Shown: piece after piece, positions 11,776-13,337 of the stretch | How positions within the stretch are numbered: the first letter of the stretch is position 1 | How the letters are laid out: the number at the start of each line of letters is the position of its first letter | NCBI GenBank assembly: GCA_951406725.2 | Contig: OX597825.1 | Span: forward strand, 2,728,001-2,792,000 | Source of the DNA: Octopus vulgaris | Taxonomy: Eukaryota | Direction: 5' to 3' | DNA length: 64,000 nt | The notes under the pieces: generated by a model | Seen by the model: the letters and a program-made list of their open reading frames with translations, nothing else | What the model was told of the DNA's origin: nothing | The model's database searches: none | Position numbers and translations under genes: made by a program

Positions 11776-12243
11776 TCTAGTGGGAAATGATAAAGGAAAT
11801 ATCATTGCTGAGCAGGATTATTAACCTCATTAATTTCTGATTCATAATCCAACGCTGTAGAATTATTTTATGAAGGGGGACCTCTTTCAAATTTTTACAA
11901 CACTGTACAGTCCGCAAAAGTGAAAGAGGAATTATAGGGTTTCGATAAACGGGAAGACTATTTAATTCGGTATTCAAGAATATGCGTTCATTATACGTTA
12001 CCTTTCCACAGTTAGCACCTAAAGCTAGTTCACACACTTGTCTAGAACTTATGATTTAAAACAGAAGATTTCCCTTCACAGAAACGTAAATCGCATAAGT
12101 AAGTTCATCCAGTGCACAACCATGTTAACCACACTGATATTTAAGATAGATTAAACTTCCTATGTAAACGTTTCATGCGGATTTTCCGATTACCTATGAT
12201 TTTTTTTCCTTCTTTCTTCAAATATATTTCTGCTTCTAAATAT

Positions 12244-12289
<46 letters not shown>

Positions 12290-12296
<7 letters not shown>

Positions 12297-12547
12297 AGGG
12301 TTTTTGCAACAAGTTGCTTAAGCCACATACCGAAAATTTTAGAAATAGCATCCAAAAGACTACTATTTCCTTTTGTAGTCTTTTGGCTGCTATTTCTAAA
12401 ATTTTCGGTATGTGGTTTAAGCAACTTGTTGCAAAAAAAACCTTGTTATTATAATCATATAAATTTTTACCGAATATGGTCCTTTTCCATACCGAAATAC
12501 TACTAGGTGAAATTTGTTTATTTTATTAAATTAATTATATTTCACCC
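12290..12547 (+). mobile_element. Fold-back element 1 (~75-bp inverted arms + tail) within (TA)n
   Basis: Arms 12290-12363 and 12375-12453 are near-perfect reverse complements, 11-nt loop; tail ends aaattaattatatttcaccc; TA runs on both sides. Confidence 0.85.
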
Positions 12548-12703
12548 TATATATATATATATAACTTATAGATAAGGGCAAAGGAAAATCTTTCTAATGC
12601 CAAATATACCGAAAATTGGACATATTGTCCATTACCATATAATTTTTCACCATACGCACGCTACTCGAAAAAAGCCGACAGAAATCTCTAAAAAATTCCG
12701 TTA

Positions 12704-12763
12704 TTACCATATCGGACCGATTTCAGGGTTAGTTCGTAAGAACCCTCCCTTCGCCAGTGATAA
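12704..12763 (-). ncRNA. Antisense copy of the type I hammerhead, core variant CUGGCGA
   Basis: Reverse complement reads ttatca ctggcga aggg ag ggttc ttac gaact aa ccct gaaa tcggtccga ta tggtaa. Confidence 0.65.
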
Positions 12764-12770
12764 TTGTCGT

Positions 12771-12830
12771 TTATCACTGACGAAGGGAGGGTCCTTACGA
12801 ACTAATCCTGAAATCGGTCCGATATGGTAA
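12771..12830 (+). ncRNA. Type I hammerhead ribozyme
   Basis: Stem I ttatca/tggtaa; core CUGACGA 12777-83; stem II aggg...tcct; GAAA 12810-13; near-palindromic stem III tcgg-t-ccga; AUA triplet, predicted cut after 12824. Confidence 0.8.
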
Positions 12831-13013
12831 TAATGGAATCTTTTTGAAATTTCTGTCGACCTTTTTTTAGTAGCGTGCGTATTGTGAAAAAATTATAATG
12901 GTAATGAACAATGTGTCTAATTTCGGCATATTTAGCATTGTAAATTTTTTCGTTTGCCCTTATTTATAAGTTGTTTATAAGTTTAACCATTAAATGTAAT
13001 TTTTAATATGCTG

Positions 13014-13068
13014 GCCATTGATAAACTGATGAATGTCCTGAGAAGAGACATGAAACAATTGTAGTGGC
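13014..13068 (+). ncRNA. Type I minimal hammerhead ribozyme with 7-nt insertion before the core
   Basis: gccat[tgataaa]CUGAUGA atgtc-ctgagaaga-gacat GAAA caattg UA gtggc; palindromic stem III caattg; GUA triplet. Confidence 0.7.
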
Positions 13069-13337
13069 GAATATAATTTTATTTAATTTATATTAACATT
13101 TTTTTATGTATTGGATTAAATCTGTCTTTGTTTGATTTGCAAAATAGTGGTTTTGTCTCTAATTAATATTATATAATATTTTACTATAAAATTGGATTCA
13201 ATCCTAAATCTGATTTTCCCTGTAAATTTGGATTTATTCCCTAATATTTATTATATATATATATATATATATATACATAAATATGTGTGCGTGTGTGTGA
13301 AGGAAGTCATATAGAGGAAGTCATATGTATGTGTGTG

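Follow-up and report, generated by a model that had tools for sequence, protein, structure and literature searches.

A hammerhead-bearing palindrome in the Octopus vulgaris genome: probable Penelope-type insertion of two head-to-head, 5'-truncated repeat copies

The window analyzed here is a stretch of 64,000 nucleotides of the Octopus vulgaris genome (assembly GCA_951406725.2, contig OX597825.1, positions 2,728,001 to 2,792,000 of the forward strand), and positions are counted from its first nucleotide. It contains a long palindrome that consists of two copies of a repeat denoted family A and lies between copies of two other repeats, families B and C. In unit coordinates, 0 is C3 of CUGA. The features are as follows.

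12290..12548, no strand assigned: family C fold-back, with a short-end left arm and a long-end right arm carrying a tail of about 100 nt
12549..12562, no strand assigned: (TA)n run between the family C long end and the family A left arm
12563..12767, minus strand: left arm, a 5'-truncated family A copy, unit -10 to about +200
12699..12766, minus strand: left hammerhead, core CTGGCGA at 12757-12751 (A6G)
12764..12770, no strand assigned: head-to-head junction, a 7-nt 'loop' of family A sequence contributed by both arms
12768..12835, plus strand: right hammerhead, type I, core CTGACGA at 12777-12783
12770..13025, plus strand: right arm, a 5'-truncated family A copy, unit -7 to +248
13026..13250, plus strand: family B copy, from another, younger repeat with a hammerhead, joined to the right arm and ending in (TA)n

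Local alignment of 12556-12763 with 12771-12979 yields 182 matching and 25 mismatching positions plus 3 gaps (arms of about 207 nt, 88% complementarity). The stretch 12556-13025 folds into a single hairpin whose loop measures 7 nt and whose energy is -265.6 kcal/mol (z -27.8; none of 100 shuffles reached so low a value). The inverted arms of about 200 bp with a 7-nt gap that were described in a first-pass annotation, made from the sequence alone, are thus confirmed; the palindrome was, however, taken to end at 12972, whereas family A sequence continues to 13025. The junction 'loop' is no separate spacer but unit sequence (-10 to -7) in which position -7 carries a private change, and the 5' ends of the arms meet within 2 nt, without a TA target between them. 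The left arm has a 3' end of the 'short' type, followed by (TA)n; the right arm passes the short end into the tail and stops at +248 instead of the usual long end at +292, its outer end having been lost to family B. The (TA)n run at 12549..12562 is likely the insertion target of the family A pair. The closest genomic matches are 92-95% identical to the left arm and 90-95% identical to the right arm, and the 88% identity of the arms to each other excludes a sequencing fold-back artefact.

The right arm had been annotated as carrying a complete type I hammerhead with an AUA site, and the core, the pairing, and compensatory changes agree with this assignment. The extended stem I pairs 12768-12776 with 12825-12835 (TATCA/TGGTA); helix II spans 12784-12809 and is followed by GAAA (12810-12813), helix III is TCG-gtc-CGA, and AUA occupies 12822-12824, with the predicted cut after 12824. 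The core of this arm matches CUGANGA, GAAA, and NUH, and the core is intact in 43 of 58 sampled copies. Across family A copies, variation is 1.5% at the 13 core positions, against 5.9% in the remainder of the motif and 6.2% in the sequence downstream of it; 20 of the 21 helix pairs are kept in 89-100% of the copies and the remaining pair in 77%. Double (compensatory) changes occur at -1/48, 9/30, 14/25, and 15/24, possibly representing few events. Taken together, the core sequence, the base pairing, and the compensatory changes make a convincing case for the family A motif being a real type I hammerhead.

The label 'minimal', which had also been applied, does not fit: helix III consists of 3 bp with a 3-nt loop, so that the motif is not a min-HHR. 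The search with Rfam hammerhead models proposed earlier gave no match, either in the whole window at the gathering threshold or in 12200-13200 at E<=10; generic hairpin (miRNA) models alone appeared, below threshold. The hammerhead fold of the isolated right-arm motif has an energy of -1.9 kcal/mol against a minimum of -11.4 kcal/mol, and that of an intact family copy -9.9 against -16.5 kcal/mol; we give these results no weight because the energy model omits core contacts.

The same ribozyme is present on the minus strand of the left arm with the single core change noticed at first pass, A6G, which, presuming established hammerhead chemistry, is likely inactivating; stem I has also lost its outer pairs -8 and -7 there. 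In the right hammerhead, helix II has decayed, with a C-A mismatch and a new G-U. Judging by these changes, both ribozymes at the palindrome are decaying. Hammerheads of Penelope-like elements (PLEs) described in PMC4209133 (2014) are similar in being type I, in forming opposite-strand pairs (100-700 bp apart in Schistosoma), and in having a near-palindromic helix III suited to dimers; the family A motif differs from them in its 3-bp helix III, bulged extended stem I, and long helix II.

Partial tandems give family A a period of 478 nt, with one hammerhead per unit. Unbroken segments of 801-868 nt span two hammerheads, and there are direct tandem copies of 1.3-1.8 units, 1.8 units being the longest seen. 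The longest open frame has 69 aa, the GC content is 33%, and the unit, when assessed as an autonomous PLE, contained no ORF with reverse transcriptase (RT) and GIY-YIG domains. The genome yielded 2208 first-look candidates, and a 22-mer from the family A 3' end has 741 exact matches; the palindrome is one of hundreds of decaying insertions.

By the unit definition of non-LTR retrozymes (PMC7229834; bioRxiv 10.64898/2026.07.22.740005), the family A sequence fits a non-coding retrozyme of this type. Like the animal non-LTR retrozymes of these two accounts, it is a non-coding, low-GC tandem unit with one type I hammerhead that coexists with PLEs, and its 478 nt fall within the reported 51-972 bp. 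Unlike them, family A occurs mostly as dispersed, truncated inverted pairs rather than long arrays, and it displays a clear PLE insertion signature that the available text of those accounts does not describe for animal retrozymes. Mobilization of retrozymes by PLEs is argued, in the available text of the retrozyme papers, from co-occurrence and pLTR homology. Our literature searches found no paper on family A or on two-template PLE insertions; the family is possibly already catalogued in Repbase or Dfam.

For the junction survey, we took the first 100 of the 741 22-mer matches by chromosomal position and merged these into 82 loci; three repeats of one insertion and one apparent duplicate were removed, and the window's own locus was left out. 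A locus was included if one arm matched +176 to +198 exactly, irrespective of the ribozyme. A head-to-head junction is present in 57 of the 82 loci (59 junctions in all), and none of the 82 has a tail-to-tail junction. Of the 59 junctions, 43 pair an arm ending close to +200 with an arm ending close to +292, and the outer ends mostly run into (TA)n. Family A thus carries, as far as sequence can tell, the PLE insertion signature, namely, an inverted 5'-truncated copy, a one-sided tail, and (TA)n targets, and this family-wide pattern of inverted copy plus tail supports the link to Penelope-like elements suggested at first pass. Target-site duplications are unreadable within (TA)n flanks, and the right end of the palindrome is lost to family B.

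Insertions of EN+ PLEs have been characterized by an inverted 5'-truncated copy, a tail at one end, and a (TA)n bias (PMC8557442), with the head-to-head arrangement being the most frequent and junction palindromes read as products of self-priming (PMC3846280, 2013). Family A resembles them, as these sources describe them, in the inverted copy, the one-arm tail, the (TA)n targets, the partial tandems, and the junction palindromes, and differs in having no ORF and a tail of about 90 nt instead of 30-40. PMC8557442 treats the question of how PLE tandems and inverted structures form as unresolved.

The arms overlap by at least 1 nt in 29 of the 59 junctions, and the short-ended arm extends further 5' in 24 of the 34 asymmetric short/long pairs (p=0.024), so that often neither arm contains the other; among the 43 short/long pairs, 21 are strictly non-nested and 3 have no overlap at all. 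Barring later trimming, non-nested arms favor two priming events over hairpin copying. There are, however, 16 symmetric junctions among the 59, compared with 5.4 expected by permutation (p=2e-4), and this enrichment implies that self-priming, or annealing at self-complementary ends, also contributes. Self-priming may make many symmetric fold-backs.

Two loci on different chromosomes, L248 and L250, share the same junction, in which -2 is joined to +23 via ACT/AAC microhomology; recurrent events or propagation of one fold-back are possible explanations.

The family C fold-back, which ends 15 bases to the left (1966 genomic candidates), has no hammerhead core that we could find in 12290..12548 and is a ribozyme-free control with the same architecture. 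The family B copy begins exactly at its CTGATGA core, having lost the 5' strand of its own stem I, and has GUA at 13061-13063; family B has 1023 candidates, with 97-100% identity among the top matches. Three families of PLE type are stacked within 1 kb.

The genome also harbors an autonomous GIY-YIG PLE, for which all 150 scored matches are 100% identical to the query, many of them in 775-aa frames; it has two 3' ends in (TA)n and many minus-then-plus pairs. From its sequence uniformity, this element appears to be very young and active. In the comparison with this one PLE family, we found no sequence match to family A or C.

Elsewhere in family B, head-to-head pairs with variable spacers are common, and the hammerhead has a palindromic helix III, CAATTG, and a GUA site. 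One minus-strand locus, L226 (G000:C1:27840600-27850500), contains the young autonomous PLE in 4.27-kb tandems, with a 775-aa RT/GIY-YIG frame that has CX4CXXC before the nuclease and is preceded by a separate 454-codon stop-to-stop frame; this repeat also includes a candidate hammerhead-like variant (CCGAAGA core and GAAA-GTA).

The two arms of the palindrome belong to different subfamilies. The left arm has the haplotype G82 T84 A136 C141 and the right arm A82 C84 G136 T141, which are the two commonest haplotypes, found in 37 and 43, respectively, of 173 other segments. The top genomic matches of the two arms are different loci, with up to 95% identity, as against 87-88% between the arms; the partner arm ranks 111-117 of 131, and the arms fall in separate parts of the tree, with one starred branch on the path between them, the inner branches being mostly weak. 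Of the 7 columns that separate the two match sets, 6 (two of them indels) divide the arms in the expected way, and column 126 does not.

In a marker test of junctions with at least 3 substitution markers, drawn from 162 loci that include sets chosen by similarity, the number of discordant markers was 0 in 42 of the 65 junctions, 1 in 17, 2 in 4, 3 in 1, and 4 in 1. The single junction with four discordances is the palindrome in the window, where 4 of 9 markers differ, the maximum among the 65. Had arms been paired at random, 34 of the 65 junctions would be expected to have at least 3 discordant markers. At two other loci, L185 and L250, the fold-back arms differ at the linked markers 82 and 84 alone, possibly through partial template switches or conversion patches.

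Since the arms come from different subfamilies, plain self-copying of a single strand is excluded for the outer arms. Subfamily markers are absent from -10 to +81, and self-copying could therefore account for the inner part of about 90 nt. The mixed arms would stem either from integration of two RNAs or from later conversion of one arm. It is conceivable, albeit something that we would sooner doubt than assert, that the palindrome is the fossil of one Penelope-type integration using two RNAs, one for each nicked target strand, which would match a dimeric RT-endonuclease. If so, this case and the non-nested arms at other loci would show that the inverted structures of PLEs arise by twin priming at two internal start sites and not by hairpin self-copying, and that hammerhead retrozymes are carried by the PLE machinery.

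On the whole, the palindrome very probably consists of head-to-head, 5'-truncated copies of the 478-nt hammerhead repeat that were likely inserted by a PLE protein. From the tandem unit, the two fixed 3' ends, the scattered 5' ends, the fillers (short inverted duplications described below), and the mixed arms, we infer the following course of events. The PLE endonuclease would nick both strands of an AT-rich (TA)n target, and each nick would prime reverse transcription at one of two internal starts (+200 and +292), producing one short-ended and one long-ended arm. Both cDNAs would stop early and be joined by microhomology, in many cases snapping back briefly at a small palindrome. As a rule, one template would serve both arms; here, either two subfamily RNAs would have entered one event, or ectopic conversion would have overwritten one arm later, after which a younger family B copy likely replaced the right-arm tail beyond +248. 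The ribozyme likely processes the source RNA and, in this copy, would be a decaying passenger.

A biochemical parallel is Poseidon PAc of Anolis, whose protein in vitro cuts and extends both target strands, with two internal RNA start sites defining the tail and hammerhead cleavage unneeded (PMC11167929). Family A is similar to this system, as reported there, in the two RT starts that define the tail, in both-strand cleavage and extension, and in AT-rich targets; the differences are that PAc is autonomous and that the available text of PMC11167929 does not demonstrate formation of the inverted join. Several findings count against the PLE explanation: among the PLEs of this genome, of which one family was compared, no autonomous element with family A sequence was found; 59 of the 65 marker-tested junctions have 0-1 discordant markers; symmetric junctions are enriched; and fillers exist.

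In L1 twin priming, two primers on one target give rise to inverted, microhomology-joined pieces that do not overlap. In family A, by contrast, overlap between the arms is usual, and their starts lie at two fixed internal sites.

The strongest alternative, which we consider rather unlikely, is that the cDNA, or an antisense template, folded back and primed itself at a small self-complementary site, not because of the ribozyme, and that conversion from another subfamily later replaced the outer part of one arm. Besides the symmetric junctions, the short fillers at CCATGG, TCGA, and ACATGT speak for such self-priming, which was proposed for PLE palindromes in PMC3846280; furthermore, no marker distinguishes the arms in their inner 90 nt, and the allele of the left subfamily is present in both at marker 126. 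However, a second event is required at the palindrome, the non-nested (21/43) and non-overlapping (3/43) pairs demand extra trimming, and PMC11167929 reports two RT start sites in vitro.

An improbable alternative posits an assembly chimera or, instead, two independent insertions placed back to back at a PLE hot spot. The origin of the arms from different subfamilies and the crowding of three PLE-type families would be compatible with this, but the arm 5' ends meet too closely, within 2 nt and with no intervening TA target, and the pair shows the usual combination of one short and one longer end.

A further proposal, based on the first-pass reading, is that the 5' edge of the folded ribozyme stalls RT and so triggers the fold-back, the resulting duplex being a selected off-switch for the ribozyme. 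At the palindrome itself, both arms indeed end at -10/-7, next to the stem I edge at -9, and the duplex is very stable. Across the family, in contrast, the inversion points are scattered: only 2 of the 59 junctions have both arms within 5 nt of -9, the majority of arm 5' ends lie at +80 to +180, and the centers of the 16 symmetric junctions range from -13 to +170. Arm ends within 5 nt of -9 number 7 of 118, compared with 2.7 under a uniform spread, but 48 of the 478 equally wide windows hold as many. Local tests near the edge gave p=0.059 for junctions (5/20) and p=0.012 for ends (7/24), the ends not being independent; slight local enrichment of arm ends around the ribozyme edge may exist.

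We further scanned the genome for exact patterns of motif, gap, and inverted motif at the ribozyme edge and at three control sites. Such patterns were found at 6 loci for the edge, 4 for +23, 12 for +92 (13 matches), and 14 for -44, and long symmetric fold-backs (at least 80 nt) at 2/6, 3/4, 8/12, and 3/14 of these, respectively; hence, the earlier expectation that fold-back axes would cluster at the ribozyme 5' edge finds no excess over the control sites, where long fold-backs are at least as numerous. This holds although conservation is highest for the edge motif (kept in 49/60 copies, compared with 35/64 at +23, 52/89 at +92, and 32/47 at -44). The A6G change leaves the window's own locus uncounted by the edge pattern. 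Two of the three long -44 fold-backs belong to a sister family.

Among the 36 pattern loci, 17 are inverted fillers of 11-26 nt, mostly at small palindromes such as CCATGG, TCGA, and ACATGT, and 3 of the 6 edge matches sit in a subfamily whose G at -6 creates ACATGT. An apparent hot spot of full fold-backs at CCCATGGG, suggested by the raw pattern counts, was rejected, most of the matches being such 11-26-nt fillers. Nascent DNA of family A does snap back, but the place appears to be set by short palindromes and not by the ribozyme; of the cDNA self-priming tied to the ribozyme that had been proposed, the short snap-back fillers occur, but the position of the axis across the family does not follow the ribozyme.

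Stalling at the ribozyme thus faces scattered arm ends, control sites with at least as many long fold-backs, edge matches of which half fall in the ACATGT-creating subfamily, an adjoining family C fold-back without any ribozyme, and, at the palindrome, two decaying ribozymes in arms from two subfamilies; we consider it very improbable, and the turning point of the palindrome likely adjoins the ribozyme by chance. As to the off-switch, folding indicates that both ribozymes would be hidden in the duplex of any read-through RNA, but there is no sign of selection for this, as both cores are decaying and most fold-backs hold no or one ribozyme (0 in 27, 1 in 26, and 2 in 6 of the 59 junctions). No host gene was recognized by eye among the 19 open frames of at least 130 aa in the window, exons not being excluded by this inspection, so that read-through transcription finds no support. 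An off-switch coupled to a ribozyme would have been a novelty, but these data lend it no support.

Finally, a MITE or fold-back DNA transposon with terminal inverted repeats of about 200 bp and an incidental hammerhead-like motif, which many copies resemble as TA-flanked inverted repeats, is refuted by centers that vary from copy to copy, outer ends that differ by about 90 nt in 43 of the 59 junctions, and the direct tandems of 1.3-1.8 units.

With a Penelope-type insertion as the preferred reading, the palindrome belongs to an ordinary class and offers one useful mechanistic clue, the arms of mixed subfamily. Family A is a good natural data set, that is, a protein-free hammerhead repeat with the full PLE insertion signature, in which markers tell one-template from two-template events and snap-back fillers are visible; subfamily markers over thousands of copies make the twin-priming question countable in one genome.

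Several minor observations concern related repeats. The 3' ends of families A, B, and C share a CCCT(T/A)A-like motif immediately preceding the TA run (12575-12581, 12953-12970, 13228-13245, 12290-12300, and 12540-12550), which, by its sequence, is possibly a shared RT start signal and may resemble the telomere template CCCTAA. A sister family at L251, L252, and L253 has the -44 motif of family A and diverges around the ribozyme (…GCCGCTGA…). At L111, a PLE RT fragment (1122-1192) immediately precedes a family A segment starting at +59, either as a chance neighbor or as a trace of a parent element. An unrelated repeat at L157 (around 1037, minus strand) contains a type I hammerhead with CTGATGA, a palindromic helix III (CAGCTG), and GUA.
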